Source: Fimbriimonadaceae bacterium
GTDB taxonomy: Bacteria > Armatimonadota > Fimbriimonadia > Fimbriimonadales > Fimbriimonadaceae
Reading direction: 5' to 3'
Length of the DNA: 64,000 bases
NCBI GenBank assembly: GCA_050250535.1
Contig: JBFWOL010000005.1
Coordinates: 31,735-95,734 of the forward strand
Shown piece by piece: positions 2,498-40,101 of this stretch. The translations under genes were made by a program, and so were the position numbers. Below the pieces are notes generated by a model that ran no database searches, was not told the origin of the DNA, and saw nothing but the letters and a program-made list of their open reading frames with translations. Every line of letters begins with the position of its first letter. Position 1 is the stretch's first letter.

Positions 2498-3526
2498 ATG
2501 ATCGTTGTCATGCAGCTTGGTGCCACCCAGGAGCAGATCGACGCTGTCTGTAAGGTCATCCGCGACCACGGCCACGAGCCGCTCGTCCTGCCTGGCCAGG
2601 ATCGCCTCGCGGTCGGTGTCCCCGACTCTCTCGGTTCCGACGAGCGTTCCTCGATCGAGGGTCAAATTGCGCGGCTTGAGGGCGTGAGCAAAGTCACGCA
2701 AACGTCGAGTCCGTATAAGTTAGCCAGCAGAGAGTTCCATAGGATCGGCACCAAGGTAGAGGTCGGGCCCGTAACTTTCGGTGGAGGGAAGTTTGTCGTG
2801 ATTGCCGGGCCGTGCTCGGTTGAGTCCTATGATCAGTTCAGCACGTCGGCAGACATCGTCAAGCAAGCCGGGGGGACGGTCCTTCGCGGCGGGGCGTTCA
2901 AGCCACGCACGTCGCCTTACTCCTTTCAAGGCCTCCAGGTCGAGGGCCTGCAGATCATCAAACAGGTGGGAAAAGAGACTGGCCTCACGACGATCAGCGA
3001 AGTGATGACCGCGGACATGGTGGGCACGGTCGCCGAGTATGTGGACATCCTCCAGATCGGTGCCCGCAGCATGCAAAACTTCCCGCTCTTGATCCAGGCA
3101 GGGCAAAGCCGCAAGCCGGTCTTCCTGAAGCGCGGGCCGAGCGCGACGATCGACGAGTTTCTCTTGGCGGCCGAGTACCTGCTCAACCAGGGCAACGACC
3201 AGGTGATCCTTTGCGAGCGGGGAATCATGCCGCTCGACCGCGCCTACACGAGGAACACGCTCGACCTTGCCGCGGTGCCCGTCCTCAAAGAGAACACGCA
3301 CTTGCCAGTCGTGGTAGATCCCTCGCACGGTACCGGGGTTGCGCGGTATGTGGAGCCAATGGCCAAGGCGGCGCTTGTGGCCGGGGCAGACGGGATCATG
3401 GTCGAGACGCACCCGGAGCCGTTGACTGCACTCAGCGACGCAGGCCAGGCGCTGGATCCGGTGCAGTTCCGGGGGTTGATGGATTCCCTCCGCACGTTGG
3501 CGCCAGTTTGTGGGACGTCCCTCTAG
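2498..3526 (+). CDS. 3-deoxy-7-phosphoheptulonate (DAHP) synthase, type I-beta, with N-terminal ferredoxin-like regulatory domain
   Basis: KPRTSPYSFQG motif and TIM-barrel aldolase core. Only the 3' 343 codons of track ORF 1286..3526 are coding (the 5' part is antisense to the DLH gene). ATG at 2498 is in frame. Confidence 0.8.
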   Translation: MIVVMQLGATQEQIDAVCKVIRDHGHEPLVLPGQDRLAVGVPDSLGSDERSSIEGQIARLEGVSKVTQTSSPYKLASREFHRIGTKVEVGPVTFGGGKFVVIAGPCSVESYDQFSTSADIVKQAGGTVLRGGAFKPRTSPYSFQGLQVEGLQIIKQVGKETGLTTISEVMTADMVGTVAEYVDILQIGARSMQNFPLLIQAGQSRKPVFLKRGPSATIDEFLLAAEYLLNQGNDQVILCERGIMPLDRAYTRNTLDLAAVPVLKENTHLPVVVDPSHGTGVARYVEPMAKAALVAGADGIMVETHPEPLTALSDAGQALDPVQFRGLMDSLRTLAPVCGTSL

Positions 3527-4839
3527 CCCGGGTTGGGAAGGATCTTCGCATGGCCGTCCGCGAAGACGACCGCCCGCCCGCCCTTCACCGGGATGTAACC
3601 CACCTCGGTCTCCGATGGGAACTGTATAGAGTTCCAGTCCCTTTCGCCAAGGGTGAACACAAAGCCGTCCAGCATTTCGGAAGAAAGAAGATAGGGCTCT
3701 AGCGCAGATCGTAGTGACTCCGCCGAGGGCATTGCTCCGTCGTAGTCTGCGGCGTACAGGTGGAGCGCCGTCCCGACCTCCTTCGCACGGATCACGGCCT
3801 TGGTTCTCTCGATCGCCTCGCGCCGCTCCACGATGTACTCTCGGTCGACGACCTGAATGTTCCGGACGTACAGGCCACCGCGGATCGCGTAAGCGATCCA
3901 CGACCATCTTGGGTCAGCGCGGAACTGCACAGCCTCGGTCGCGACCAAGGCCTTGTCGGCCCCTTCCTCACCTTCGGCCTCGATCCATAGCGAACCGAGC
4001 GCCCGCGACCCTCCGGCCGTATGAAGCCGCGAGGCCTTTCCCTGGAGCGAAAACCCGTCGAAGCGAGGGTTCCGGGACCACGGGATCGCTTCGATCGGTA
4101 CGGGAACAAGCCGCTTCTCGACAGCGTCCGCCGTGATGCCCTCAGAGCGGCCGTAGGGGACGCATACGAAGAACCCGCGTCGATCCTGCTTCCACTCGCT
4201 GTGGAAGAGTTCGGGGCGCTCACTCCACGGGAGCCACAACAAGCCGTCGTCACCAGAGGGCACCGCGACCCACGATGGGCCGTGCGGCACGTTCCACGTG
4301 AACAAACCGATTGGGAATGAGGGCGCGGAGTCGACGTACGTCGGCTGGGCCCGCGAGTACGGGACGCCGGCGATCGAGGGTGGCAAAGGCACGTTGGTCG
4401 TGGATCGCAATTGAAGGTCGTGCCGCTGAACCCGTAACTGGGCCGATCCCTCTGCCATGTCGTACTGGCACCAGAACATGTAGAGGTACCTGCCGCTCGG
4501 CGACCACGCAAAGGCCAGGGAGTCTTCGTCCCACTTACGTACCTTCCAGGAGTGGCCGGTCCGGAAGTCCACGACCATGTACCACCGTTCCGTGGCGTCG
4601 GACTCTTCCTCGGAGAGCACCTTGCCGGGCTGGTCGGGCCCACTCGCGGACTCATAGACGGCGTGCCCCGTGTATTGGCTGAGGACGAACTGCCCCTCGC
4701 GGGCCAAGCTCTCGGGCACGACCTGTCTGGCACCGCCGATCACGAGCCCAATCTCTTTCCCGAGCACCATCGCGTCTTCGAGGGCCAGGGTGTCTTGCGA
4801 CACTACCCAGGCGAGGGTGGCCAAAAGAGTCGCACTCAT
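3523..4839 (-). CDS. secreted hypothetical protein, Trp-rich, with degenerate prepilin-associated HX9DG-like C-terminus (VVFADGH)
   Basis: N-terminal signal-like segment; C-terminal GGRAVVFADGHAKIL resembles the DUF1559/HX9DG tail but lacks the His and the prepilin N-terminus. Confidence 0.5.
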   Translation of the reverse strand: MSATLLATLAWVVSQDTLALEDAMVLGKEIGLVIGGARQVVPESLAREGQFVLSQYTGHAVYESASGPDQPGKVLSEEESDATERWYMVVDFRTGHSWKVRKWDEDSLAFAWSPSGRYLYMFWCQYDMAEGSAQLRVQRHDLQLRSTTNVPLPPSIAGVPYSRAQPTYVDSAPSFPIGLFTWNVPHGPSWVAVPSGDDGLLWLPWSERPELFHSEWKQDRRGFFVCVPYGRSEGITADAVEKRLVPVPIEAIPWSRNPRFDGFSLQGKASRLHTAGGSRALGSLWIEAEGEEGADKALVATEAVQFRADPRWSWIAYAIRGGLYVRNIQVVDREYIVERREAIERTKAVIRAKEVGTALHLYAADYDGAMPSAESLRSALEPYLLSSEMLDGFVFTLGERDWNSIQFPSETEVGYIPVKGGRAVVFADGHAKILPNPG

Positions 4840-8324: not shown

Positions 8325-10883
8325 ATGCGGCCACAGACGCCGATGATGAGACAGTACTGGGAGGCCAAAGACGCCCACCCGGACGCCCTCATTGCCATGC
8401 GCGTCGGGGACTTCTACGAGTTTTACGGCGAGGACGCCGAGACCGCGGCGGGTGCACTGGAGATCACGCTGACCGGTCGCGAGGACGGCAAGAACGGCCG
8501 GATCCCGATGGCGGGCGTACCGTACCACTCCATCGAGCGCTACCTTGCGAAGCTGGTCCGTTCTGGCTTCAAGGTCGCTTTGTGCGAGCAGCTGGAAGAC
8601 CCCAAGCTAGCCAAGGGCCTCGTCAAACGGGGAGTCAGCCGCGTTCTGAGTGCAGGCACGATCGTCGAGGAAGGGTTGCTCGACTCGGCGACGAACAACT
8701 TCCTCGCCGCGGTGGCGGTCGTAGACGGCAGAGCGGGTCTGGCGGTGCTTGATCTCTCCACGGGAGAGTTCCTCGCGACGGAAGCCCAGGGCGAAGAGGG
8801 CTGGGAAAGGCTCTTGGGCGAGCTCTCCCGATTGCGTCCGGCAGAGTTGCTGGTGCCGGAGGAAGGGTGCGACGTACCGTTTTCCGATGCGGTGCATACC
8901 ACCTCGAAGCCGTTACCGCTCGGGAGGGCGGAGTCCCAACTCTCGCGCCAGTTCGGCGTCTCGACGCTCCGCGGCTTTGGCCTGGACGGAAGGGACGCGG
9001 CGGTGACTGCTGCCTCGATGCTCGTGAGCTACGCGGGGACGAGCGGGCTCTCTCTCGGACACGTCTCTGGCATCGCCCACTACTCGATCGAGGGCTTCAT
9101 GCAGCTCGACCAGTCCACCCGGCGGGCGCTCGAACTGACCCAAAACTCCTCCGACGGGTCTCGACGACACACCCTTCTCGCAACGCTCGACCGGTGCTCC
9201 ACTCCGATGGGGTCGCGGCTCCTGCGCAGGTGGGTCGAGCAACCCTTGCTGGATCCTGGGGAGACCGAGCGAAGGCTCGACGCCGTCGGTCGCCTGGGCG
9301 AACACGGTGGCACCCGCGCCGAGGTGCGCGAGGCTCTCGCGAAGCTCGGCGACATGGAGCGGCTGGGGGCCAGGGCGGTCTCCGGCATCGCCGGACCTCG
9401 CGACCTCCTTCGTCTACGCGGTGCACTCGCGGGCCTGCCCCGGCTCGACGACAGCCTCCGCAAGGTAGGGGTCGGGCTCATCCACGACCTGCGCGAGCAG
9501 TTGGGCGACCACGCAGAGCTGGACTTAAAGCTACGTACGGCGCTTTCCGAAGATCCGCCCCACCATGCCCGCGAGGGTGGTTGCTTCCGCGAAGGCTTCG
9601 ATGCCGAGCTCGACAAGCTCCGGGAGATTGAGCGAGAGGGCAAGGCCTTCATCGCCAAGCTGGAGCAGCAGGAAAGGGAGGCGAGCGGGATTGACAAGCT
9701 CAAGGTGGGCTACAACTCGGTGTTCGGCTACTACCTCGAGGTTCCGCGCAGCCAGGCGGACAAGGTGCCGAGCCACTACGTGCGCAAACAGACCACGGCA
9801 GCGGCCGAGCGTTACATCACGGCAGAGATCAAAGAGCACGAGAGCGCGGTAGTCGGCGCACAGGAGAAGGCGGCCCAGCTTGAGACCGACCTGTTCGACC
9901 GGCTTCGGGCCAGCGTCGCGGCGGAGGCAGCCGCGATCGTTTCGAGCGCACGGGCGGTGGCCGCACTTGACGTCCTTTCTTCCCTTGCGGAGGCAGCCGT
10001 AAGGAACCGTTACGTCAGGCCGGAGATCGTTGCCGATGACGTCCTCGAGATCGTCCAGGGCCGCCACCCGGTCGTGGAAGAGTCCGGAGGATTCGTCCCG
10101 AACGACACGATGCTCGACTCGGAGACGCGGTGCGTCGTGCTGACCGGACCGAACATGAGCGGCAAGAGCACCTACCTGCGCCAGACCGCGCTCATTGTGC
10201 TCATGGCGCAAATCGGTTCGTTCGTGCCTGCCGTCTCCTGTAGGCTCAGTCCCTGCGACCGGATCTTCACCCGCGTGGGCGCCCGGGACGAGCTCGCACT
10301 CGGCCAATCCACATTCATGGTCGAGATGACGGAGAGCGCCAACATCCTGAACCACGCCACCGAGCGTTCGCTCGTAGTGCTGGACGAGGTCGGACGTGGC
10401 ACCTCGACTTTTGACGGTCTTGCGATCGCGTGGGCGATGTGCGAGCATCTTTCAGCGATCCGTTGCAAGACGCTGTTCGCGACCCACTACCATCAGCTAA
10501 ACGCGTTGGCCGGCCAGGTCACCGCGATCACGAACTGGAGGGTCGCGGTGGAGGAGCACGAGGGCGAGATCGTCTGGTCGCACCGCGTTCTCCCAGGGGG
10601 CACGGACAAGTCGTACGGGATCCACGTTGCCAAGATGGCCGGAGTGCCGCCGAGCGTCCTTCGCCGGGCGGAAGGGGTGCTCGCAGAGCTGGAGGGAACC
10701 GAGCGGCCGGTCACAGCGTCAGCTCCGGCGACGAGCCGGATGCAGATGTCGCTCTTCGTTCCCGACGACACGCTCGCCCGAGAGATCGAGGCCACGGACG
10801 TCGCGAAGATGACCCCGCTCGAGGCCTTGGTCCGCATTGACGAGTGGAAGAAGAGGATCGCCGGTTCGGCACCGAAGGGCTAG
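8325..10883 (+). CDS. mutS: DNA mismatch repair protein MutS
   Basis: MRQYWEAKDAHPDALIAMRVGDFYEFYGEDA N-terminus; Walker A GPNMSGKSTYLRQ; DEVGRGTSTFDG. Real ATG at 8325; the track ORF prefix 7905..8324 is antisense to the holin-like gene. Confidence 0.9.
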   Translation: MRPQTPMMRQYWEAKDAHPDALIAMRVGDFYEFYGEDAETAAGALEITLTGREDGKNGRIPMAGVPYHSIERYLAKLVRSGFKVALCEQLEDPKLAKGLVKRGVSRVLSAGTIVEEGLLDSATNNFLAAVAVVDGRAGLAVLDLSTGEFLATEAQGEEGWERLLGELSRLRPAELLVPEEGCDVPFSDAVHTTSKPLPLGRAESQLSRQFGVSTLRGFGLDGRDAAVTAASMLVSYAGTSGLSLGHVSGIAHYSIEGFMQLDQSTRRALELTQNSSDGSRRHTLLATLDRCSTPMGSRLLRRWVEQPLLDPGETERRLDAVGRLGEHGGTRAEVREALAKLGDMERLGARAVSGIAGPRDLLRLRGALAGLPRLDDSLRKVGVGLIHDLREQLGDHAELDLKLRTALSEDPPHHAREGGCFREGFDAELDKLREIEREGKAFIAKLEQQEREASGIDKLKVGYNSVFGYYLEVPRSQADKVPSHYVRKQTTAAAERYITAEIKEHESAVVGAQEKAAQLETDLFDRLRASVAAEAAAIVSSARAVAALDVLSSLAEAAVRNRYVRPEIVADDVLEIVQGRHPVVEESGGFVPNDTMLDSETRCVVLTGPNMSGKSTYLRQTALIVLMAQIGSFVPAVSCRLSPCDRIFTRVGARDELALGQSTFMVEMTESANILNHATERSLVVLDEVGRGTSTFDGLAIAWAMCEHLSAIRCKTLFATHYHQLNALAGQVTAITNWRVAVEEHEGEIVWSHRVLPGGTDKSYGIHVAKMAGVPPSVLRRAEGVLAELEGTERPVTASAPATSRMQMSLFVPDDTLAREIEATDVAKMTPLEALVRIDEWKKRIAGSAPKG

Positions 10884-11869
10884 ACGACACGGACAAGCGG
10901 CCCGCCTGGGAGTATCCGCCCGATCTCGACCGAGCCTTGGACCTCTCCTGTGCATGCGACGGCGAGGCCACCGCTGGTCTGGGGATCAAGGACGACTTCC
11001 CGTAGCCACTCGGGCACGGTATCGGCAAACTCTAGCGCAGACTCCCAATGGGAAAGGTTACGACGGGCCCCGCCGGTAGAGTGGCCCGCGGCGATCAGCC
11101 TCTCGATTCCCGGCAGAACGGGCAGTCTCGCCGCGTCCACCTCGATCGTGACGCCGCTGGCCTTGGCGATGTGGGAGAGGTGCCCGGCTAGGCCGAATCC
11201 GGTGACGTCCGTCGCGCACCGTGCCCCGGCGGCGAGCGCGGCCTCCGCAGCCTTGCGGTTGAGCTGTTTCATCGTCGCCACCGCGGCGGCGAGCTCATCT
11301 TCGCTCGCGCCGTCATTCTTGGCGGCCGTTGCCACGATCCCCGTGCCCACTGGCTTGCTCAGCCAGAGCCGGTCGCCTGGCTCGGCCTTGTCGTTTTGCA
11401 GCGTCCGGCCCGGGTTCACGATGCCGGTGACCGACATCCCGAACTTGGGCTCGCGATCGTCTACCGTGTGTCCGCCTACGAGCACCGCACCGGCCTCGAC
11501 CGTCTTGTCGTGCATTCCTTGTAGCACCGCGGCCCACACCTCTGGGGGCGCTAGGCTAGGGTCGAAACAGGCTATGTTCAAGGCCGTGACAGGCGTGCCC
11601 CCCATCGCGTAGACGTCGCTCAGTGCGTTCGCGGCCGCTATCTGGCCATAGTCATAGGGGTCGTCGACGATGGGCGGGAAAAAGTCCAAGGTCTGCACGA
11701 GGGCGCTACCGTCGGGCAGGGCGAAGACCCCCGCGTCGTCCGAGGTCGAAAAACCGACCAACAGACGCGGGTCGTTCGCTTGAGGCAGGCGGCCGAGCAC
11801 GTCGGCCAACTGGGCAGGGCCCAGCTTGCCCGCTCAACCGGCGCAAGAAGCGAGATGTGTCAATCGCAC
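10880..11869 (-). CDS. selD: selenide, water dikinase (selenophosphate synthetase) SelD, selenocysteine-containing (in-frame TGA at 11834..11836)
   Basis: Track ORF starts at TTG 11809. The same frame read upstream gives GTG(11869) RLTHLASCAGU(TGA)AGKLGPAQ-LADVLGRL, which aligns with E. coli/H. influenzae SelD [11 protein letters not shown](C/U)[9 protein letters not shown]. A TAG lies immediately upstream of the GTG. Confidence 0.8.
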
Positions 11870-11882
11870 ACCCGCATGCTAC

Positions 11883-12626
11883 CTAGAGCTTGAGCCGCTT
11901 GAAGATCCGTTCGGGCACGAGTCGGAAGACCGACATGACGAGCCGCCATGGGCCTGGCACGTACACGACGTCGCGCCGCTTCTCGATCGCGGCGGCGATC
12001 TTCTCGGCCACGTCCTCGGGCTGGGCGAGGAGCGGCAGCTTGCCCATTCCGAAAGTCATCGCAGTGTCCACGGGGCCGGGCTTCACCGTGATGACCGAAA
12101 CTCCGGAGTGGACGAGCCGTGCCCTCAGGCCCTGGAGAAACGCGCTGAGCCCAGCCTTGGCCGATCCATAGAGATAGTTCGACCGTCGGCCACGGTCGCC
12201 TGCCACTGACGACATGGCACAGATCCATCCGCCGCCCCGGTCTTCGAAAATGTTGGCGACGTCGAGCAGGACCAGTGCAGGAGCGGTGTAGTTCGCCGAC
12301 ATCACGCGGACGGCCTCGGCCTCGTCGTGCTCGGCCTCCTCTTGCGAACCGAGGTAGCCGACGGCCATGACGACTCCTTCTAACGGGCCGGTCTCTCGCT
12401 CCGCCGCTTCCACCACCTGTCGGCCCGCGCCCTCGGCGGTCGCTTCAAACCTGACAACGACACAGGCTCGGCCCGTTCGGATCGTCAGGTCGCTCGCGCT
12501 CGCGTTGAGGTCGTCCACGTCTCTCCCTGCCAATACGATGATGTGGCCTTTCTGGGCGAGCTTCAGCGCAATCTGGCGGGCGATCGCGCTTCCCGCACCA
12601 AGGATCAAGACCGGGCCAGGCGTCAT
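11883..12626 (-). CDS. short-chain dehydrogenase/reductase, DprE2-like (decaprenylphosphoryl-2-keto-ribose reductase homologue)
   Basis: Rossmann motif LILGAGSAIARQ; SDR core; ATG (12624-12626) overlaps the TGA of the upstream DprE1 gene (ATGA coupling), the same arrangement as the mycobacterial dprE1-dprE2 pair. Confidence 0.65.
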   Translation of the reverse strand: MTPGPVLILGAGSAIARQIALKLAQKGHIIVLAGRDVDDLNASASDLTIRTGRACVVVRFEATAEGAGRQVVEAAERETGPLEGVVMAVGYLGSQEEAEHDEAEAVRVMSANYTAPALVLLDVANIFEDRGGGWICAMSSVAGDRGRRSNYLYGSAKAGLSAFLQGLRARLVHSGVSVITVKPGPVDTAMTFGMGKLPLLAQPEDVAEKIAAAIEKRRDVVYVPGPWRLVMSVFRLVPERIFKRLKL

Positions 12627-13984
12627 GCGAGGCCGAGCCTCCGAGCCAGGTCGCTCGACAACCGAGAGGAAGGGTCGCACGCTTCGCGCACCTGCCGAAA
12701 CTCCGGGAGCCGGGGGTACATCCGCTCAAAGGCGGCACGAGACAGCCTGGCGTCTTTGGCCAGGTACACGCGGCCGCCGGCATCTGCGACGATATCGTCC
12801 ATTCGGTCGAGCACGGCCTCGATCCCGGTCCGCATCGGTAGGTCGAGGGCCAAAGTCAAGCCGGGCATCGGGAACGAGAGCATGCCTTCTCCCTGACTGC
12901 CGAACTTCTTGAGCACGCCCAGGAACGAACCGTAGCCGCCGTCCGCCAAGGACTGGATGACGGTGCGTACGGTCGCCCTCGCGGTCTCGGGCGGGGCGAC
13001 GAACTGGTACTGCAGAAACCCGCGCTTGCCGTACATCCGGTTCCAGCCATGGATCGCATCCAGTGGATAGAAGAAAGGCTCGATCGGACAGAGAAACCTC
13101 CCGCGGCGTCCTTGGAGCCAGTGGTAGATGGAGTTGCCCAGTCGGATCGTGAAGGGGTTCAGTGCCCAGCCGGGTAGATCGAAGGGGAACGGCTTGGCAC
13201 GCTTGGGTCTCCATTCGAGGGCAGCGCGACCGCCGGGAATCTGGTCGAGGGCGGCGTGCTCCCCCGTCATCAGGACGCCCCTTCCCAGATGGGGGCCCGC
13301 TGCCATTCCGTCGATCCAAGCGACCGAGTAGGTTGCGTCGTGGGCCGGGTCGTCCAGAAGGTCGAAGAGTTCGTCAAGGGTCCGGGCTGGGCTGTGCTGG
13401 ACCGCCATCCACGACGTTTCGACCCGCTTGAGCCGCAAGGTGAGCGTCGAGACCATTCCGGTCAGACCCATGCCCCCAGCTGTCGCCCAAAAGAGGCCGG
13501 CGTCCTCCTGCGGGGTGACCCAGGCGGTGGCCCCGTCGGGCCTGACAAGCTCGAAGGATCTCACGTGGTTGCTAAAGCTGCCTGCCACGTGGTGGTTCTT
13601 GCCGTGAACGTCGGCGGCGAGACAGCCGCCTAGGGAACAGAACCTCGTCCCAGGGGTCACGGGCAAGAACCACCCGTGAGGGATCAGGGCTTCGATGACG
13701 TCCTCCAGCGTCGCCCCTGCCTCCGCCGTCAGGTCGCCGGTCTCCGAGTTGAACCCGAGCATCCGGTCGAGCCGCTCGGTCAGCACGACCGTGCCGAGGG
13801 AGTTCAATGCTGCGTCGCCGTAAGAACGGCCTTGTCCTCGAGCAAGGCTGGAGGCGCCGATCGGGCGGAGTCCGCGCCGTCGCTCCGGCCTCGTCAGCTT
13901 GGCAGGAGCTATCGGATGGTTGCCCCACCCAGAAAGCCGTTCGACCTCGGAAGTTTTGGCAGGCGCTGGTTCGGGGAGGCTCAT
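12623..13984 (-). CDS. dprE1: FAD-dependent decaprenylphosphoryl-beta-D-ribose 2'-oxidase DprE1 family
   Basis: Close full-length match to recalled M. tuberculosis DprE1 signatures: RLSGWG, GQGRSYGD, PGTRFCSLGGCLAADVHGKNHH..GSFSNHVRS, LFWATAGGMGLTG, FLQYQFV, MYPRLPEF..VREACDP. The Cys387 position is Ala. Confidence 0.8.
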   Translation of the reverse strand: MSLPEPAPAKTSEVERLSGWGNHPIAPAKLTRPERRRGLRPIGASSLARGQGRSYGDAALNSLGTVVLTERLDRMLGFNSETGDLTAEAGATLEDVIEALIPHGWFLPVTPGTRFCSLGGCLAADVHGKNHHVAGSFSNHVRSFELVRPDGATAWVTPQEDAGLFWATAGGMGLTGMVSTLTLRLKRVETSWMAVQHSPARTLDELFDLLDDPAHDATYSVAWIDGMAAGPHLGRGVLMTGEHAALDQIPGGRAALEWRPKRAKPFPFDLPGWALNPFTIRLGNSIYHWLQGRRGRFLCPIEPFFYPLDAIHGWNRMYGKRGFLQYQFVAPPETARATVRTVIQSLADGGYGSFLGVLKKFGSQGEGMLSFPMPGLTLALDLPMRTGIEAVLDRMDDIVADAGGRVYLAKDARLSRAAFERMYPRLPEFRQVREACDPSSRLSSDLARRLGLA

Positions 13985-13989
13985 CGAGG

Positions 13990-15261
<1,272 letters not shown>

Positions 15262-15318
15262 TCAGGATGCCTCTCGGCCCATCCGATGGCATTGCGGCGA
15301 ATCTATCCGATAGAATGA

Positions 15319-16275
15319 ATGGGAGTCCCTGGTAATTGGTGTAGTTTGCGTCTTATCGTCTTGAGGAGTTCATTGTTTGCGCTGTCGTGCGGAGTGTTCA
15401 CGGCGCTCTCTGGGCCTGCCTCACCCAGGGTCGAGCTCGACGCAGCCGCCGCGGCCCCCTCGCCCGAGCCAGTGACCACTGCGCCCTTCCGACCGACCAA
15501 CCTTGACGGCACCGTGCCCGTTCTCATGTACCACCGCACCGGGCCGGAAGAGAAGTACATGGTTCGTTCGGCGGAGAACTTCCGGGAGGATCTCGCCCGG
15601 CTCTACGCTTCCGGATTTCGGCCGGTGACTTTGGCCGAGTACGCGTCGGGCAAGATGCCGATCAAACCGGGAGAGTCGCCGGTTGTCCTCACCTTCGACG
15701 ACTCCGCCGAGTCGCAGTTCCGGATCATGCCAGACGGTTCGGTCGATCCTGAGTGCTTCGTCGGGTTATGGCGTGCGTTCGCCGAGAGCGTGCCCGACTT
15801 CCCGGTTCGCGGGACGTTCTTCGTAAACCCGAACGGACCATTCGAGCAACGAGGGCTGGGAGCAAAGAAGGTCAAGTTGTTGCGAGAGTGGGGATCCGAG
15901 ATCGCTTGGCACTCGCGAACCCACGTGGACTTCTCGAAGGCGAGCGACCGCCGCGTGATGTCCGAGATGGCGTACGGGTTCGAGTACCTCGAAAAGCTCG
16001 GTGTGACGCCTAAGACGTTTGCCCTGCCCTACGGGTCGTTGCCGAAGAACAAGGGGTTGCTTGAAGGATTCGACTGGAACGGAAGGAGGATCAAGTATGA
16101 CGCCGTCGCCCTGGCGGGCTCGGCTCCGATGACATCGCCCCACCAGAATCCGCGCCTACATCGAATCCAACGGATCCAGGCCTATCCAGGGCTGTACGGC
16201 ATCGACTACTGGCTCAATCGGTATGCCGACGGACGCCAGGCCCAGTACGTCGAAGGATCGCCAGAGCGTGGCTGA
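15319..16275 (+). CDS. polysaccharide deacetylase (NodB-homology) family protein, secreted
   Basis: PVLMYHR and VVLTFDDS NodB motifs; N-terminal hydrophobic signal. Confidence 0.7.
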   Translation: MGVPGNWCSLRLIVLRSSLFALSCGVFTALSGPASPRVELDAAAAAPSPEPVTTAPFRPTNLDGTVPVLMYHRTGPEEKYMVRSAENFREDLARLYASGFRPVTLAEYASGKMPIKPGESPVVLTFDDSAESQFRIMPDGSVDPECFVGLWRAFAESVPDFPVRGTFFVNPNGPFEQRGLGAKKVKLLREWGSEIAWHSRTHVDFSKASDRRVMSEMAYGFEYLEKLGVTPKTFALPYGSLPKNKGLLEGFDWNGRRIKYDAVALAGSAPMTSPHQNPRLHRIQRIQAYPGLYGIDYWLNRYADGRQAQYVEGSPERG

Positions 16276-16954
16276 GGCCGTTCGCACGGCCCGCCCCGTC
16301 ACCCTGAACGAAGTTCGGGCGAGCGGGGATGTCCGGGCGTATATTGACGGCGCCAACGAGGTCATGAGGGCGATGGGATTCACCGAGCACGGCCATCGGC
16401 ACGTCGGCATCGTCTCCGGCATCACCCGCTACATCATGGAGGAGCTGGAGAGCAGCCCCCGTGAGGTCGAGCTGGGAACGATCGCCGCCTACCTCCACGA
16501 CGTTGGAAACGTCATCAATCGGATCGACCATCCGATGACCGGGGCGAACATCGCCCGAGAGCTGCTGAGCACGATGGGGATGCCGGCAGAGGAGATCGTG
16601 CCCATCCTTGGGGCGATCGGCAACCATGAAGAGCTGGCAGGCACTCCGACCAGCCTCATGGGTGCGGCCGTGATCATCGCGGACAAGAGCGACGTGCACC
16701 GCTCCAGGGTTCAGAACCCGATCATGGAGAGCTTTGACATCCACGACCGTGTGAACTACGCGGTCGAGAAGAGCCGAGTCGAGATGGACAGGACAAAGAA
16801 GGTCGTGAGCCTTGTCTTGGACGTGGACACGACTTTCGCCAGCGTAATGGAGTACTTCGAAATCTTCCTTTCAAGGATGGTGATGTGCCGCCGCGCGGCG
16901 AAGCTGTTCGGCTACAGCTTTTCGCTCCACGTCAACGGCACATCGCTCGAGTAG
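16268..16954 (+). CDS. HD-domain phosphohydrolase
   Basis: H..H(HGHRH) and HD (YLHDVGN) motifs; probable GTG start overlapping the deacetylase stop (track ORF opens at 16223). Confidence 0.6.
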   Translation: MAEAVRTARPVTLNEVRASGDVRAYIDGANEVMRAMGFTEHGHRHVGIVSGITRYIMEELESSPREVELGTIAAYLHDVGNVINRIDHPMTGANIARELLSTMGMPAEEIVPILGAIGNHEELAGTPTSLMGAAVIIADKSDVHRSRVQNPIMESFDIHDRVNYAVEKSRVEMDRTKKVVSLVLDVDTTFASVMEYFEIFLSRMVMCRRAAKLFGYSFSLHVNGTSLE

Positions 16955-24585: not shown

Positions 24586-25647
24586 GTGCTTGGCGTCGGC
24601 ATTGTGGGTTGCGGGAACATCAGTTCGATCTACGCCGCCAACCTAGGCGGTGCTGTTGTCGGAGTGGCAGACTTGGACACCGGGCGTGCGGAAGCCTTGG
24701 CCGCCCGTGGAGGGATTCGGGCATTTGCTTCGGTGCCCGAGCTTCTCGAGTCCCCGCACGTGGGCATTGTCCTCAACCTCACGACGCCCGACGGGCACTT
24801 CTCGGTCAGCGAGGCCGCGCTCCGGGCAGGCAAGCACGTCTATGTCGAGAAGCCTCTCTCCTCGAGCTTGGTCGAAGCCCGCGCGCTCTTGGATTTGGCA
24901 GATTCGAAGAGTCTGGTGGTCGGTTGCGCACCGGACACCGTCCTCGGCGCCGGGATTCAGACCTGTAGGCGTCTGGTGGACGACGGCTCACTCGGCGAGG
25001 TGACGACCGGTTTCGCCTCGATGCTTTGCCCGGGGCACGAGGCTTGGCACCCAGCCCCAGCCTTCTATTACAATTCTGGTGGGGGGCCGATGTGGGACAT
25101 GGGGCCGTACTATCTGACTGCGCTCGTGTGGCTGCTCGGGCCAATCGCCGCGGTCACAGCCTCGGCATCCACGCCGCGATCCGAGCGGACGGTGGCCTCC
25201 GGGCCCAAAGCTGGCGAGAGAGTCCCAGTCGAGACCCCGACCACGATCGCGGCGACCCTCGAGCTCGTTTCGGGTGCGGTCGTCCAGTTCTTGGTTTCCT
25301 TCGACGTTGCCGCGCACGATTTGCCGCACCTTGAGCTTCATGGGCAGCGAGGGGCACTGCGCGTGCCGGATCCTAACGGCTTTGGTGGGGCACCCTTGGT
25401 GCGGGAAGCCTCGGGGTGGCAGCCTGTTCCCCTCGATCCCGGGCTCAACGAAAACGCGCGAGGGATCGGGGTGCGCGAGATGGCTAGGGCGATCGAGAGA
25501 GGAGCGACCCCTCGCTGCTCAGGGGAGGTCGCGCTCCATATCGTCGAAGTGATGGCAGGCGCGCTCGACTCGGCGACAAGGGGCTCGCGCGTGACCATCG
25601 CATCTCGGCCCAGTCGTCCGGCACCGTTTCGCGGTGGAGAATGGTAG
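24586..25647 (+). CDS. Gfo/Idh/MocA family NAD(P)-dependent oxidoreductase
   Basis: GTG start; Rossmann motif GIVGCGNIS and EKPLS motif. Confidence 0.8.
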   Translation: MLGVGIVGCGNISSIYAANLGGAVVGVADLDTGRAEALAARGGIRAFASVPELLESPHVGIVLNLTTPDGHFSVSEAALRAGKHVYVEKPLSSSLVEARALLDLADSKSLVVGCAPDTVLGAGIQTCRRLVDDGSLGEVTTGFASMLCPGHEAWHPAPAFYYNSGGGPMWDMGPYYLTALVWLLGPIAAVTASASTPRSERTVASGPKAGERVPVETPTTIAATLELVSGAVVQFLVSFDVAAHDLPHLELHGQRGALRVPDPNGFGGAPLVREASGWQPVPLDPGLNENARGIGVREMARAIERGATPRCSGEVALHIVEVMAGALDSATRGSRVTIASRPSRPAPFRGGEW

Positions 25648-26168
25648 CCCGCAGAGCAACCTGGCCCGAGTTCCTCCTCGCGCTCGCTACGGCGGTGATG
25701 ATCGGGCACAACTTGAGCCTCGCCCGGACGGCCGACCAGTCGCAGTCAGCGATGTTCTTCTATTGGCAAAACCCGTGGGTCGGACCGATGAACCTGGGCT
25801 CGACGCTCTTATGCGGGGCCGTCTGCCTCGGGGTGGCGGCATGGATCGGCATGCCGGGGCGCGGTCGCCTGTTTGGGCCGCTGCTCCTGGTGTTCTGCTG
25901 TATCGGGGCTGCGGGTGCCTGGTCAGAAGCCGTGCTCGCAGCCAGGGCAGAGGCTTCCGCGGGTTACGTCCTCGCCGGGTTGCCGATCCTGCCGTTGAGT
26001 TCTTACGGCCTGGTAGGTTCCCAGGCTTTCCTCACGTACATCCTGTCCTCAGTCGTAAGGCGAGGAGGCGCGAGGCCGCCCTTTGGACTCGTGCTGCTCT
26101 GGTCGGTCGGCTTGCTTTGCACACAATGGCTCGCATGGGACGGCGTCCTGCGCACGACCCAACCGTAG
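25641..26168 (+). CDS. hypothetical polytopic membrane protein
   Basis: ATG overlaps the upstream TAG (ATGGTAG); 4-5 hydrophobic helices; preferred over the Arg-rich alternate frame 25634..26392. Confidence 0.45.
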   Translation: MVARRATWPEFLLALATAVMIGHNLSLARTADQSQSAMFFYWQNPWVGPMNLGSTLLCGAVCLGVAAWIGMPGRGRLFGPLLLVFCCIGAAGAWSEAVLAARAEASAGYVLAGLPILPLSSYGLVGSQAFLTYILSSVVRRGGARPPFGLVLLWSVGLLCTQWLAWDGVLRTTQP

Positions 26169-26186
26169 GGATATCCTCAGCTACCG

Positions 26187-26630
26187 GTGGCCCGAAAGCT
26201 CGTCTTTCTTGCGCTCGTGCTGTTCTTGCTCGCCTTTCCGGCGCTAGGACTGCTGTGGATCTGGAGCGATGGACACTCCAAGGTTCGGTTATCGGCGATC
26301 GCCGAGGCAAACCGGGTGATGCCGGAGCTTCTCGCAGCGACGGACCTCGCCACGCTGGACTCCTACGGAACGCTCGAGTTTCGGCAGTCTAGGCAGGCGG
26401 CAGCGTTCGTGGAAGCACGGCTCAAGATGGGCAGACCGGTCTCGTCCGGCTCTGCCCGGGCAGTGGGTTCAAAGTCCGGCTCCAAGAACGACCGCGTGTG
26501 GCACTTCGTGGATTTGGTCACCGACGTACGGTTCGACTCGGGGGCCGCGAAGGTGCGGCTCAAGCTCGCTCGCGAAACCATGGCTCCCGATTGGCGGATC
26601 GAAGACATCGTAATTTCACAGAATCCCTGA
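26187..26630 (+). CDS. membrane-anchored hypothetical protein (NTF2-like C-terminal domain; distant paralogue of 43040..43507)
   Basis: N-terminal TM anchor; C-terminus VRFDSGAAKVRLKLARE..WRIEDIVISQN resembles VRFEFKKE..WRLVSIQASN of the ORF at 43040. Confidence 0.45.
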   Translation: MARKLVFLALVLFLLAFPALGLLWIWSDGHSKVRLSAIAEANRVMPELLAATDLATLDSYGTLEFRQSRQAAAFVEARLKMGRPVSSGSARAVGSKSGSKNDRVWHFVDLVTDVRFDSGAAKVRLKLARETMAPDWRIEDIVISQNP

Positions 26631-27767: not shown

Positions 27768-28175
27768 CTAGCGAGCTCGCTTGCCGTTCCAGCACGCGGC
27801 CAAAGCGATCACCGCAAGCCCCGCGATCGCCAACGGCGGAAAGACCGGGGGCCAGTTCCCTATAACCTGGGAACCGGGCTTGCTCCACACGTCAAGGTAC
27901 ACGCGGAACGGTTGTAGGTTGCCCGAAGTGTGCAAGTATATTCCCGCTGCACTTACACCGATCCCCAATGCTAGCAGGTATTGGGCGAGGGTACGGAAGA
28001 ATCCGGACTTGGCCATGCCCATAAGGCAGGCGAGTGCGCCGATCCCACAATAAACGATCGGGATCCATGCGGTCTGGAGCCTCTCGAGCACGAGGCGGTG
28101 CTCATAGCGGATCTCTGCCGCAAGACCGAGAAAAGCAAGCGCACAGATGAGCAGAACGACATTCTCCCGCCGCAC
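27768..28175 (-). CDS. small polytopic membrane protein (tandem paralogue 1)
   Basis: MRRENVVLLICALAFLGLAAEIRYEHR..; four hydrophobic helices; homologous to the next ORF. Confidence 0.5.
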   Translation of the reverse strand: MRRENVVLLICALAFLGLAAEIRYEHRLVLERLQTAWIPIVYCGIGALACLMGMAKSGFFRTLAQYLLALGIGVSAAGIYLHTSGNLQPFRVYLDVWSKPGSQVIGNWPPVFPPLAIAGLAVIALAACWNGKRAR

Positions 28176-28193
28176 GCCCCATTGTGGCGCATC

Positions 28194-28679
28194 TTAGGCG
28201 GCTTCCGAGCGGTGTTCCCGTTCCGCGCCCTCGATGGAGAGGTGGGGACGGTTCACCGGAACCTTGGCGGCCCGCCGAGCCCCAGGCCAGACGAGCACGA
28301 AGCCAAGGATGCCCAAGCCTGCCAGCGACAGGGGCGCTACGGCGGATGTCGCGCGCGTGGAGCCTGTGGGCTTCACCGCCCGGGGCGCCGTTACGTCGAG
28401 AGTCTCGACGACCTGCATCGGGCGACCGCGGGTGTGATGGGCAAGCCCTACGCCACCGACCAGCAACCCGCAAGCACAGATCCACGAGGCGATCCTCTTG
28501 ATCCGCTCCCATCGCGGCAGGGAACAAAGGAGTGCGAGGCTGGCGAGCGCACAGTAGGCAGCTGGGACATAGGCGTGCCAGGTTGTCCGCGTCGCGAACC
28601 GATGGAGGAAGCGAAGGTCAATTGCGAGGGCAGCGAACGAGAGCGCCACGACCAGTACTGCCAACGAGTTCCGCCGCAT
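28194..28679 (-). CDS. small polytopic membrane protein (tandem paralogue 2)
   Basis: MRRNSLAVLVVALSFAALAIDLRFLHR.. aligns residue-by-residue with the N-terminal 90 aa of ORF 27768..28175. Confidence 0.5.
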   Translation of the reverse strand: MRRNSLAVLVVALSFAALAIDLRFLHRFATRTTWHAYVPAAYCALASLALLCSLPRWERIKRIASWICACGLLVGGVGLAHHTRGRPMQVVETLDVTAPRAVKPTGSTRATSAVAPLSLAGLGILGFVLVWPGARRAAKVPVNRPHLSIEGAEREHRSEAA

Positions 28680-33194: not shown

Positions 33195-33311
33195 CTAGCG
33201 AACTGTACTGCGGCCGCACCTTCTGGGTTGACCGCGCGGGACGAAGAACCTCCAGTAGATTGCGAAGTACGTCCCCTTCACGCCCCCGCAATTGCACCGA
33301 TACACAACTCG

Positions 33312-34031
33312 ATGAACAAGGGCGTGCTCTCTGCGGCCTCCGCAATGCAAGTGAGCCAGCAATGGCTCGACGCAATCGCGAACAACCTTGCGAACGCCAG
33401 TACTGTAGGTTTCAAGCGCGACGGCCTCGCCTTCGAGGAAGGCTATGAGAGCCAGGTTCGCGCCCAAGGCGGCCAAGGCTTCCCGGTAGGAACCGTGGGG
33501 CGCAAGACCGAGGTCGCGTTGGCCTACACCGACCAGACCCAAGGGGCGCTCGTCCCGACAGGCAACCCGCTCGACGTGGCGCTCACTGCTCCGGAAACCT
33601 ACTTTGCGATCGAGGTCGCAGGCGGCACCGCCTACACCCGAAACGGAAGCTTCCGGATCGGCGCGGACGGTGGTCTGACCGATCAAAGCGGGCGAGCCGT
33701 CTTGGATGAGGGGCTCGCCCCCATCAGGCTCGGGAAGGGCCCGATCGAAATTGGTGCCGACGGAGCGATCCTTCAGGGCGGGGCGACGGTGGCCCGGCTC
33801 GGCGTCTTCCAGGGAAACCTGAGCAAGGCAGGAGGAAACCTCTATAGGGGCAGCGCCTCGCCGGCAGCTGCGAACCTGCAATCCGGGCACCTGGAGTCTT
33901 CCAATGTCAATGCCATCGAAGAGATGGTCGCGATGATCCGCCTCAACCGTGTGTTCGAGATGGCGCAAAAGGCTATCCAGAGCCAGGACGAGAGCTCGCA
34001 ACGACTAATCCAATCCGCTCAGGACCGCTAA
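33312..34031 (+). CDS. flgF: flagellar basal-body rod protein FlgF
   Basis: N-terminal ANNLANAST(V)GFK motif; GTAYTRNGSF; C-terminal LESSNVN..EMV.MI..R.FE; ATG at 33312 (track ORF opens with TTG at 33228). Confidence 0.8.
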   Translation: MNKGVLSAASAMQVSQQWLDAIANNLANASTVGFKRDGLAFEEGYESQVRAQGGQGFPVGTVGRKTEVALAYTDQTQGALVPTGNPLDVALTAPETYFAIEVAGGTAYTRNGSFRIGADGGLTDQSGRAVLDEGLAPIRLGKGPIEIGADGAILQGGATVARLGVFQGNLSKAGGNLYRGSASPAAANLQSGHLESSNVNAIEEMVAMIRLNRVFEMAQKAIQSQDESSQRLIQSAQDR

Positions 34032-34134
34032 TGCAGGACGGGGCGACATTTGCCCCGAGGCAGGGAGGCCGCCCGACCGGCGACCCCGCGAGACTGAGCC
34101 ACGACCCGAACCGATCGAGGAATACGAAAGGCTT

Positions 34135-34923
34135 ATGATGAGGGCACTCAACACTGCAGGCACCGGCATGGTAGCCCAGCAGTTCAATCTAGACATTATC
34201 GCGAACAACCTTGCGAACGTCAACACGACCGGCTTTAAGAGCCAGCGCGCCGAGTTTCAAGACATGGTCTACCAGTCCTTACGCGCTTCTGGAGCCTCGG
34301 CAGGGGGGGCTGCGACCACTCCAGAGCCGGTACAGGTCGGACTTGGCTCCAAGTTCTCTGCAAGCGCGGCCAGCTTTGCGGCCGGGGCGTTCCAGAACAC
34401 AGGCAACGCCTTGGACATCGCGATCGCCGGAGACGGGTTCTTCCAGGTCGAATTGCCGGACGGCACGACTGCGTACACCCGCGACGGAGCCTTCAAGGTG
34501 GACGCTAACGGCCTCGTCGTGTCGAGCGACGGATATGCGCTTGTGCCGAACATCACAATCCCGACCGGGGCATCGCAGCCGACGATCTCGCCCACAGGCC
34601 AGGTCTCGGTAACCCTCCCGGGCCAGGAAGAGCCGAGCGAGCTCGGCACTCTGGAACTCGCCGTTTTTCCGAACCCTGCCGGCCTGACCAGGATCGGGCA
34701 AAACCTTTACCGAGCGGGCGGCGCTTCCGGATCCCCGTCCTCGGCCCAGCCTGGTCAGCAGGGAGCGGGAACGCTGCAGCAATTCGTAGTCGAGTCCTCG
34801 AACGTGCAGATTGTCGAGGAAATGGTCCGAATGATTACGACCCAGCGCGCCTATGAGATCAACTCTAAGGCGGTGCAGACCGCCGATGACATGCTGGGGA
34901 TTCTCAACAACCTGAAGAGGTAA
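34135..34923 (+). CDS. flgG: flagellar basal-body distal rod protein FlgG
   Basis: IIANNLANVNTTGFK, TAYTRDGAFK, VESSNVQIVEEMVRMITTQRAYE. Confidence 0.85.
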   Translation: MMRALNTAGTGMVAQQFNLDIIANNLANVNTTGFKSQRAEFQDMVYQSLRASGASAGGAATTPEPVQVGLGSKFSASAASFAAGAFQNTGNALDIAIAGDGFFQVELPDGTTAYTRDGAFKVDANGLVVSSDGYALVPNITIPTGASQPTISPTGQVSVTLPGQEEPSELGTLELAVFPNPAGLTRIGQNLYRAGGASGSPSSAQPGQQGAGTLQQFVVESSNVQIVEEMVRMITTQRAYEINSKAVQTADDMLGILNNLKR

Positions 34924-34928
34924 CAAGA

Positions 34929-36044
34929 ATGGTACTTGCACTCACAATGGCGTTGGTCGGGCCGGCCAACTACCACATCGAAGGAGACGGCTGGTTTCGT
35001 TTTCGACGAGAAGGCCGCGCCGTCTATGCGAACAGGGCCGAGCTCGTCTCGCGCGATGGCCGTATCGAGACGGCTTCTGGGCTGCCGCTTTGGCCCGAGG
35101 TCTCGGTCCACGGTACCGACTTCGTGGTCGCTCCAGACGGCACAGTGACCTGTGGCGGGGTGCAGACCGGAACCGTGGTCTTGGCCTATTTCGAATCAGC
35201 ACCACTGTTTGGTGAGGACGGGCTCGCCTCCTCCCCTGATAGGCCGAGCCTCACTCGGGTCAGGACAGGCACCCGGATCGTCAGCGAGGAGACAAGCACT
35301 GCACCGAGGGTCCGAATCCTATCGAGCCCGGCCGCGGAGGCTCGCGCCGCACTCCCACCCGCACCGGTCGAAGCGCCTCAGAGCATCACGCTGCGGCTGA
35401 CCGCAGAAGTGGACGGCCCGGCCGTGACCCTGCAGGATCTAGTCGAAGAGGCCCTGCCGACCGAGCTGGCAAACCTGGTGGTCACGACGGCCCCACCGAT
35501 CGGTGCGCGAATGACGCTCGATTCGGGGCGCGTGGAGGCCAAAGTCCGTGCAAGCGGTTTGATGCCTGAAGGATGGAGCGGGTTGGGCTCGCGCATGACG
35601 ATCCAGGTGGTTCGGTCCACGAACGCCGTGCCCCATTCGAAGCTCGTCGGTGCGGCTGCTGCTGGGCTCGCGGCCCAAGACTCGGGAGAGTGGATCGCCT
35701 CTGACAACCCTGGTGACTTCAGTGCACCGAAAGGTCGCGTTGAGCTAAGAAGCGAAAGGGCGGCAATATCGGGTAACACTGCCACGGTTGTTATCGCGGT
35801 CTATGTGGATGGGATTCGCTTTAACAGTCGCACGGTTCGATTGCAGCGTAAGTCGCTCCCCAATATGCCCTCCAAGGGTGCCGTCGTTCCTTTGCGAATG
35901 ATTGCAGGCATCGTAGTTGTGGAGTCTCGAGGGACCGTCACGGCTGTAGATATCGTCACCGGCGACGTGACGCTCAAGCTTGACACTGGGGCAGTGGTCA
36001 CGGGCCGCATGGCGGCCGATGGTTGCGTCGAGGTGCGGCGATGA
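34929..36044 (+). CDS. flgA: flagellar P-ring assembly chaperone FlgA with N-terminal rod-protein-like domain
   Basis: C-terminal SAF/FlgA domain (..GAVVPLRMIAGIVVVESRGTVTAVDIVTGDVTLKL..GRMAADGCVEV). N-terminal ~90 aa (YHIEGDGWFRF..AVYANRAEL..GTDFVVAPDGTV..VLAYFE) resemble the core of FlgF/FlgG. AAGAGG SD 9 nt upstream of the ATG. Confidence 0.6.
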   Translation: MVLALTMALVGPANYHIEGDGWFRFRREGRAVYANRAELVSRDGRIETASGLPLWPEVSVHGTDFVVAPDGTVTCGGVQTGTVVLAYFESAPLFGEDGLASSPDRPSLTRVRTGTRIVSEETSTAPRVRILSSPAAEARAALPPAPVEAPQSITLRLTAEVDGPAVTLQDLVEEALPTELANLVVTTAPPIGARMTLDSGRVEAKVRASGLMPEGWSGLGSRMTIQVVRSTNAVPHSKLVGAAAAGLAAQDSGEWIASDNPGDFSAPKGRVELRSERAAISGNTATVVIAVYVDGIRFNSRTVRLQRKSLPNMPSKGAVVPLRMIAGIVVVESRGTVTAVDIVTGDVTLKLDTGAVVTGRMAADGCVEVRR

Positions 36045-36637
36045 GGATCTTGACCTTGGTCGCGGCCTTGATGCTGAGTGCATCGGCGTTGGCGCAGGAC
36101 GGTTCTAAGGCAAACCCGGGCTCACTGGTGAACAGTGGCGCGTCGAGCCCGTTGACCGATATCGTAGCCCGGAGGGTCGGTGACCTGTTGACAGTCATCG
36201 TGGACGAGAAGGCACTGGCGGAGTTTGCCGCTAAGACCCAAGCAAGCAAGAGTGACAGCGCGAGTTTCTCGCCTTCGTTCTTCGTAGACTTCTTCCAGCG
36301 CATTTTCCGTCCATTCAGCGTTTCTTCGTCCAGTAAGACCCAGGGCGACGGTACGACGACGAACACGCAAAAAATGGAGGCGAGGCTAACCGCCAAGGTG
36401 ATCGAGGTGACGCCCGAAGGCAACCTGGTCATCGAGGGTGTCCGGACTCTCGTCACGAACAAGGACAGCCAGACGCTCTATGTGAGGGGCACGGTTCGGC
36501 GGTTCGACGTCCAGCCCGACAACACCGTGAAGAGCGCGAGCCTCGCCGATGCCGAGGTCAGCACCGTCGGTAAGGGCTTGGTCGCAGATCGCCAGAAGCG
36601 CGGATTGATCACGAGCCTGCTGGAGTGGCTTTTCTAA
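36041..36637 (+). CDS. flgH: flagellar L-ring protein FlgH
   Basis: Signal peptide; LTDIVARRVGDLLTVIVDE and LVIEGVR..QTLYVRGTVR..D...N.V motifs; ATGA overlap with flgA. Confidence 0.85.
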   Translation: MRILTLVAALMLSASALAQDGSKANPGSLVNSGASSPLTDIVARRVGDLLTVIVDEKALAEFAAKTQASKSDSASFSPSFFVDFFQRIFRPFSVSSSSKTQGDGTTTNTQKMEARLTAKVIEVTPEGNLVIEGVRTLVTNKDSQTLYVRGTVRRFDVQPDNTVKSASLADAEVSTVGKGLVADRQKRGLITSLLEWLF

Positions 36638-37854: not shown

Positions 37855-38207
37855 CCGGGATTGGCCTCCGACCGGACTTCGCCAGGATCGTCTCTCAGGC
37901 GCTCCAGCCAGGGCAGGAGGTCTCGGAACTGACCCGGCTCAAGTTGGTGCGCGGCCAGCGTGCTTCCGAGGACTTTGAGGCAATGTTCGTCAAGAACCTC
38001 CTTGACGTGGCCCGGCGGACAACGCTCTCGCAGGACGAAAGCGCGGTCTCCGATTTCGCCCGCGACATGTTGAACACCGGAATCGCCCAGGCCGTCAGCC
38101 GGCGCGCGCCCGGGCTTGGCGTCGCCACCCTCGTCTTCCAGAAGACCGCCCAGGCGCTGATTGCGCAGGAAGAGTCTTCCCCGACCCCACCCGAAACACG
38201 ACCATGA
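37851..38207 (+). CDS. flgJ: flagellar rod-binding protein (FlgJ N-terminal domain only)
   Basis: ASEDFEAMFVKNLLDVARR..DFARDMLNTGIAQAVS matches the Rod-binding domain; no muramidase domain. Confidence 0.6.
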   Translation: MTGIGLRPDFARIVSQALQPGQEVSELTRLKLVRGQRASEDFEAMFVKNLLDVARRTTLSQDESAVSDFARDMLNTGIAQAVSRRAPGLGVATLVFQKTAQALIAQEESSPTPPETRP

Positions 38208-38692: not shown

Positions 38693-38734
38693 ACCGAGAA
38701 TACAGATATGCCCGGTTATCTCGACGGGGTGAGC

Positions 38735-40099: not shown

Positions 40100-40101
40100 C
40101 G

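Follow-up and report, generated by a model that had tools for sequence, protein, structure and literature searches.

A DprE1/DprE2-type gene pair downstream of serS in a Fimbriimonadaceae genome, probably encoding a polyprenyl-phospho-ribose 2'-epimerase

Gene organization at the locus

The window analyzed here, a 64,000-nucleotide stretch of contig JBFWOL010000005.1 from a Fimbriimonadaceae bacterium (phylum Armatimonadota), carries two adjacent genes whose products are relatives of mycobacterial DprE1, an FAD-dependent oxidase, and DprE2, a short-chain dehydrogenase/reductase (SDR). The pair probably forms the two halves of an epimerase that makes a D-arabinofuranose donor. It belongs to a head-to-tail row of four minus-strand genes: serS (seryl-tRNA synthetase; 13990..15228, 412 aa in the public gene call; TIGR00414, 454 bits), the putative DprE1-like polyprenyl-phospho-ribose 2'-oxidase (12623..13984, 453 aa; Pfam, NCBIfam and PDB matches), the putative DprE2-like NAD(P)H-dependent reductase (11883..12626, 247 aa; Pfam adh_short, NCBIfam and PDB matches) and selD (selenophosphate synthetase; 10880..11869, 329 aa in the NCBI call; TIGR00476, 344 bits). 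The successive spacings are 5 nt, -4 nt and 13 nt. The mechanical open reading frame (ORF) of the SDR spans 11883-12680, and the ATG at 12626 is the start that agrees with public gene calls. At the oxidase-SDR junction, which reads GCATGACG, this ATG overlaps the oxidase TGA stop; the ATGA overlap is thus genuine.

Scans of 10500-15600 found neither an Rfam match nor a promoter-like site, and nothing resembling a terminator separates the four genes on the coding strand, which makes a single transcription unit plausible. GC content is even across the region, with the pair (0.657) matching its flanks. An identical oxidase protein is present in NCBI assembly GCA_050179525.1 and in the Logan assemblies of SRR27751815 and SRR27751817, and its nearest named relatives are proteins of Fimbriimonadaceae and of Armatimonadetes metagenome-assembled genomes. 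An original prediction made from the letters of the window had described this arrangement, and its factual elements (ORFs, coordinates, overlap, homology, the alanine discussed below, and the neighbors serS and selD) were all correct.

Identity of the oxidase and the reductase

The oxidase has the Pfam domains FAD_binding_4 and ALO (C-terminal). In a PDB search it matched the solved DprE1 proteins of M. smegmatis and M. tuberculosis (Mtb) along its whole length (E = 1e-92 to 9e-90, residues 11-452), while the next family, L-galactonolactone dehydrogenase, was reached at 8e-13 through the FAD domain only. Among NCBIfam models its top match was DprE1 (NF053785, 439.7 bits), the next model scoring 64 bits. 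Identity to Mtb DprE1 is 37.6%. We aligned 207 homologues, namely the window protein, 120 metagenomic proteins and 86 species-representative loci from many phyla, non-mycobacterial actinomycetes included. The Mtb residues Y60, G117, H132, K134, W230, Q334, Q336 and K418 are the same in the window oxidase and invariant throughout this alignment; six of them (Y60, H132, K134, Q334, Q336 and K418) we take, from the DprE1 structures, to be catalytic or ligand residues. The full-length DprE1 homology that had been claimed for this protein, as opposed to membership of the alditol oxidase or GlcD subfamilies (models scoring at most 64 bits), is thereby confirmed.

The SDR is likewise a DprE2 relative, as had been proposed: its best solved relative is DprE2 in a DprE1-DprE2 complex entry (21gq_C, E = 1.1e-33, residues 3-246), other SDR structures matching at 3e-15 or worse. 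Its motifs MSSVAG and YGSAK, which hold the Ser, Tyr and Lys residues, and the nucleotide-binding glycine motif GAGSAIA align to those of the Mtb protein. It scores 211.8 bits against the NCBIfam DprE2 model NF053786 (cutoff 250) and passes NF005489 (PRK07102, 'SDR family oxidoreductase'; cutoff 267) with 284.3 bits. The DprE1 and DprE2 models are thus the best or second-best NCBIfam matches of the respective proteins.

The position of the benzothiazinone-target cysteine

In the HMMER alignment Mtb PIPGWNICVDFPIK lies opposite PMPGLTLALDLPMR of the window, placing Ala at the position of Cys387, as first noted from the sequence. Of the 207 homologues, 190 have Ala at this position, 15 have Ser and 2 have Thr, and not one has Cys. 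The default of the family is therefore Ala, and Cys is a derived trait of mycobacterial-type enzymes, not something lost here. The window oxidase has Thr at 385, Val at 228 and Phe at 314, and so does the family at large outside mycobacteria. Cys387, which the window oxidase lacks, governs drug sensitivity and not catalysis; M. avium, without this Cys, is naturally resistant to benzothiazinones (PMC3035642). Given the Ala, nitro-benzothiazinones are predicted to form no covalent adduct on the window oxidase, and the same prediction extends to essentially the whole non-mycobacterial family. The insensitivity that had been forecast for this enzyme is thus a sound prediction and no special feature of it.

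Distribution of the family

DprE1/DprE2 is a pan-bacterial family and no actinobacterial specialty. A pattern-limited scan, with each species represented by one genome, detected relatives of the oxidase in at least 596 species genomes and in nearly all phyla; the best 80 of these at least 596 are 40-55% identical. They include Armatimonadota, Alpha-, Beta-, Gamma- and Deltaproteobacteria (among them Vibrio, Bradyrhizobium, Rhizobium and Sphingomonas), Acidobacteriota, Bacteroidota (many Chitinophagaceae), Cyanobacteriota, Myxococcota, Bacillota, Campylobacterales, Spirochaetes, Planctomycetota, Chlorobiota, Nitrospirota, Kiritimatiellales, Dehalococcoidia, Gemmatimonadota and several actinomycetes. 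A homologue is carried by 79 plasmids, mostly rhizobial. Annotation of the family is uneven. The JGI label on close homologues is decaprenylphospho-beta-D-ribofuranose 2-oxidase, and RefSeq/NCBI calls members of the oxidase clade only 'FAD-binding oxidoreductase'; model NF053785 is tuned to the mycobacterial type, hence the generic NCBI name for the non-mycobacterial clade.

Gram-negative D-arabinofuranose pathways have already been described. DprE1/DprE2 homologues are required for pilin glycosylation with D-arabinofuranose (D-Araf) in Pseudomonas aeruginosa Pa5196/PA7, where the DprE1 homologue is only 33% identical to that of Mtb (bioRxiv 10.1101/2020.04.19.049825). Kelly et al. (2024) place such homologues in a general Gram-negative scheme that adds pentofuranoses outside the cytoplasm, and they accompany Araf-containing glycans in these bacteria (PMC11127046). 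The suggestion that occurrence outside the Actinobacteria makes the window pair unusual therefore does not hold; the pair is correctly identified but ordinary, a further member of a described family.

Cassettes in other phyla

The genes around the pair were surveyed in 49 non-Armatimonadota species loci flanked on both sides by 5 kb or more, using tblastn and a hidden Markov model (HMM), built from 140 representatives, of the Rv3806c-like UbiA-family phosphoribosyl pyrophosphate (PRPP):polyprenyl-phosphate phosphoribosyltransferase (PPPRS). DprE2 lies directly downstream of DprE1 in 48 of the 49. A PPPRS gene is found in 36 of the loci, within 2.5 kb in 35 of them, and a linked PPPRS is missing from the other 13; unlinked layouts are thus common. 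The partner UbiA is named 'decaprenyl-phosphate phosphoribosyltransferase' by NCBI in Achromobacter, Asaia, Sulfuritalea, Nostoc, Anabaena and others.

The Gallionellaceae operon holding a 53% identical homologue is the fullest case, encoding a GT-C glycosyltransferase (PMT_2), DprE1, DprE2, a HAD phosphatase, UbiA and LPG_synthase_TM, and adjoining a heptosyltransferase gene; its UbiA is a relative of Mtb Rv3806c (structure 8j8j, E = 2.7e-37). The Rhizobium plasmid order is UbiA, GtrA, oxidase, SDR and two large hypothetical proteins. Cassette structure of this kind is strong guilt-by-association evidence for the function of the family.

Some PPPRS homologues carry long N-terminal extensions: P0241 (515 aa), P0251 (892 aa, with some 600 residues beyond the PPPRS part), P0364 (454 aa) and P0455 (527 aa), the extension of the last being a HAD domain, as in Citrobacter ORF15. 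The 'UbiA family prenyltransferase' of the Rhizobium plasmid (L091, 5018-6559) is 513 aa long.

The pair in Armatimonadota

Ten Armatimonadota genomes were compared: that of the window and L004, L005, L008, L009, L010, L011, L013, L094 and L095. The oxidase/SDR pair is intact and adjacent in all ten, and in nine (all but L010) serS lies directly or one to two genes upstream, giving the order serS-dprE1-dprE2. A neighbor-joining tree places the Armatimonadota sequences in a single clade whose sister is the betaproteobacterial clade with the full cassette. Of the 73 columns with conservation of 95% or more elsewhere, 71 are kept in all eight Armatimonadota sequences compared. The pair has probably been inherited vertically within the phylum as part of a conserved serS-dprE1-dprE2 string. 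Recent horizontal transfer was considered and rejected, as the GC content equals that of the flanks and the Armatimonadota sequences are monophyletic with shared synteny.

Proposed function and alternatives

We consider it likely that the two proteins act together as a polyprenyl-phospho-beta-D-ribofuranose 2'-epimerase supplying a D-Araf donor. The arguments for this are homology, the conserved catalytic residues, translational coupling and a clade with full-cassette sister lineages; we infer which substrate and product are involved, what the acceptor is, and that partner genes lie unlinked in the genome. The ribose substrate would be made from PRPP by two enzymes whose genes lie at other sites of the genome, a UbiA-family phosphoribosyltransferase and a 5'-phosphatase. 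The DprE1-like enzyme would then oxidize the 2'-OH of the lipid-linked ribose to a 2'-keto intermediate, which the DprE2-like SDR would reduce with NAD(P)H from the opposite face, yielding polyprenyl-phospho-beta-D-arabinofuranose. After flipping across the inner membrane, this donor could serve a GT-C glycosyltransferase that attaches D-Araf to a glycan or glycoprotein of the diderm envelope. The donor role put forward in the original prediction is accordingly kept as the best reading, one drawn from homology and family context.

Several observations weigh against this assignment. Both proteins fall under the equivalog cutoffs of their NCBIfam models (439.7 against 500 bits for the oxidase, 211.8 against 250 for the SDR). 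In all ten Armatimonadota genomes the DNA up to 10 kb from the pair is free of genes for UbiA, a HAD phosphatase or a GT-C enzyme, and the 64-kb window as a whole yielded no PPPRS, 5'-phosphatase, GtrA/MATE flippase or GT-C gene; for this the window ORFs were called by third-position GC, and 34 were scanned against Pfam, four of them also against NCBIfam. Public contigs extend the right end by about 9-10 kb, likewise with no partner gene (the public contig at the left end adds no sequence). An Araf-containing glycan has not been reported for Armatimonadota in the searchable literature.

Further searches gave similar results. The PPPRS HMM hit nothing at E <= 1e-3 in window ORFs of at least 120 aa or in the Armatimonadota loci other than L094 and L095; in these two there was no UbiA among the Pfam-annotated genes. 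With the Gallionellaceae GT-C as tblastn query, the Armatimonadota loci gave no match. When public protein collections were searched by word index with the Gallionellaceae PPPRS, the matches listed were all close betaproteobacterial relatives, and those listed in a search with a cyanobacterial PPPRS were all cyanobacterial. An exhaustive representative search gave 14,476 matches and 2,802 clusters at 1e-30; the clusters of 20 PPPRS representatives that were looked up were proteobacterial or unnamed metagenomic, with no Armatimonadota PPPRS. The supplement of the Fimbriimonas ginsengisoli genome paper has no UbiA, decaprenyl or arabinose entry, and literature searches combining Armatimonadota with decaprenyl found nothing, those with arabinofuranose only papers on catabolic arabinofuranosidases.

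These absences are the basis of the best-surviving alternative, that the Armatimonadota pair has been uncoupled from the PRPP-derived pathway and inverts one center of a different lipid-linked or soluble sugar, with a product other than polyprenyl-phospho-Araf. A nearby PPPRS gene is seen in 36 of the 49 loci from other phyla and in none of the 10 Armatimonadota genomes, no Armatimonadota PPPRS is among the listed matches in public protein collections, and the pair is fixed beside serS across the phylum. Yet the checked catalytic and ligand-contact residues are all unchanged, as are 71 of the 73 family-invariant columns, and 53% identity to full-cassette homologues speaks against such an uncoupling. 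Nor is linkage a rule: PPPRS is unlinked in 13 of the 49 loci of other phyla too, and the sugar and transferase genes of P. aeruginosa lie apart. The failure to find an Armatimonadota PPPRS is itself weak evidence, since only the top-ranked matches of a very large family are visible and an Armatimonadota member is easily missed among them. We hold a change of sugar to be unlikely. Our reading is of old vertical inheritance with the partner genes relocated, and not of a change of function.

A related proposal, that Armatimonadota inherited the epimerase pair alone, with no Rv3806c-type transferase anywhere in the genome, and obtain the substrate by a novel route or act on a different lipid-linked sugar, appears less probable still; if true, it would add a new way into the synthesis of pentofuranose glycans.

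Even less credence goes to a pair making a lipid-linked pentofuranose other than arabinose, for instance through another stereochemical outcome of the reduction. Auxiliary epimerases do diversify the pentofuranose in Gram-negative three-component systems, but there xylofuranose is made by a single GalE-like SDR and DprE1/DprE2 track specifically with Araf, while lyxofuranose is not known in any glycan (PMC11127046).

Finally, the FAD protein could be read as a general oxidase of sugars, alditols or aldonolactones from the vanillyl-alcohol oxidase family (alditol oxidase, L-gulono- or D-arabinono-lactone oxidase, or GlcD-like), with an unrelated SDR beside it. This would fit the bare Pfam result (FAD_binding_4 and ALO only) and the NCBI name 'FAD-binding oxidoreductase', but is effectively refuted by the model scores (439.7 bits for DprE1, at most 64 for the lactone-oxidase, alditol-oxidase and GlcD models), the PDB matches (DprE1 along its whole length at 1e-92, galactonolactone dehydrogenase only in the FAD domain at 8e-13), and an SDR that is closest to DprE2, is translationally coupled to the oxidase and keeps this pairing in 48 of 49 loci.

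Taken as an epimerase of polyprenyl-phospho-ribose, the pair suggests that D-arabinofuranose, a marker usually linked with mycobacteria, is put on an envelope glycan or protein by Armatimonadota, a diderm phylum that has been little studied and has few members in culture. Beyond annotation its importance is small. What is unusual, and mildly so, is the phylum-wide uncoupling from the usual partner genes together with the fixed place behind serS.

Other genes of the window

The selD gene is a selenoprotein gene. It has an in-frame UGA at 11834-11836 within the N-terminal motif SCAG-U-AGKL, at the position that we take to be the active-site Cys of E. coli SelD (a Cys/Sec site). Mechanical ORF lists cut the gene to a TTG at 11809. 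Past the UGA, at about 11790-11826, a stable hairpin (-40.4 kcal/mol, z = -3.8) is consistent with a bacterial selenocysteine insertion sequence (SECIS), and no Rfam SECIS family matched this region. In the window and in L095, selD follows the pair, which is thus bracketed by serS and selD, both serving selenocysteine synthesis; no functional link between the selenocysteine genes and the epimerase pair is apparent. Divergent from serS is a pair of plus-strand genes for a polysaccharide deacetylase and an HD-domain protein (15319-16954), kept in L005, L009, L013 and L094.

A flagellar cluster occupies 33228-41438 on the plus strand. It starts with rod proteins at 33228-34031 and 34135-34923, followed by an ORF with a weak FlgE/F/G D1-domain match (34929-36044), FlgH (L-ring, 36023-36637, plus strand) and FlgI (P-ring, 36625-37854, plus strand), and then a 118-aa ORF without a Pfam match, FlgN, FlgK, a flagellin-like FlgL and FliW. 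The L- and P-ring genes, which had been reported for this window and are indeed present within 36023-37854, mark the organism as a flagellated diderm.

Several well-supported ORFs with high third-position GC have no Pfam match, in 3523-4839 and 27768-28679 on the minus strand and in 25641-26630 and 56602-57732 on the plus strand. The 438-aa protein beside coaBC is called in other public contigs of the same organism too (L001 and L002), and small hydrophobic proteins in two adjacent pairs have no match either. At 60882-63212 (minus strand) a GH95 (alpha-L-fucosidase-type) glycoside hydrolase is encoded; it has a twin-arginine-like N-terminus, RRRLLQSASALG, and its gene adjoins those for CBM48 and alpha-amylase-domain proteins in a public contig (L093).

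Comparison with known systems

The Mtb decaprenylphosphoryl-beta-D-ribose 2'-epimerase, DprE1/DprE2 (Rv3790/Rv3791), resembles the window pair in having an FAD oxidase gene followed by an adjacent SDR gene, with alignment over the full length. The linked Rv3806c, Rv3807c, Rv3789 and Emb/Aft genes of Mtb are not present at the window pair, and the lipid carrier in the window organism would probably be undecaprenyl instead of decaprenyl.

The P. aeruginosa Pa5196/PA7 cluster PsPA7_6245-6251, with DprE1 as 6248 and DprE2 as 6249, feeds type IV pilin glycosylation by TfpW; the gene for the GT-C transferase lies apart from the sugar genes. This too is a flagellated diderm with DprE1/DprE2 homologues, making a lipid-linked D-Araf donor; it differs in clustering PPPRS, a phosphatase and a GtrA-like protein with DprE1/DprE2, whereas the window pair has none of these linked. 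In the Gram-negative three-component systems (PPPRS, flippase and GT136 GT-C; PMC11127046), DprE1/DprE2 homologues act on undecaprenyl-P-ribofuranose, and the resulting undecaprenyl-P-Araf is then exported and transferred by the GT-C enzyme. Neither the window nor the DNA around the pair in its Armatimonadota relatives yielded any of these three core components.

The closest relatives outside Armatimonadota are those of the Gallionellaceae/betaproteobacterial cassette (L006 and L012), with 53% identity for DprE1 and 46-50% for DprE2. There the complete pathway is in one operon, while in the window the epimerase pair stands by itself among housekeeping genes. Plasmid pRspN324b of Rhizobium sp. 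N324 has the same oxidase/SDR pair at about 43% identity, under similarly generic RefSeq names; this copy is plasmid-borne and clustered with UbiA and GtrA.

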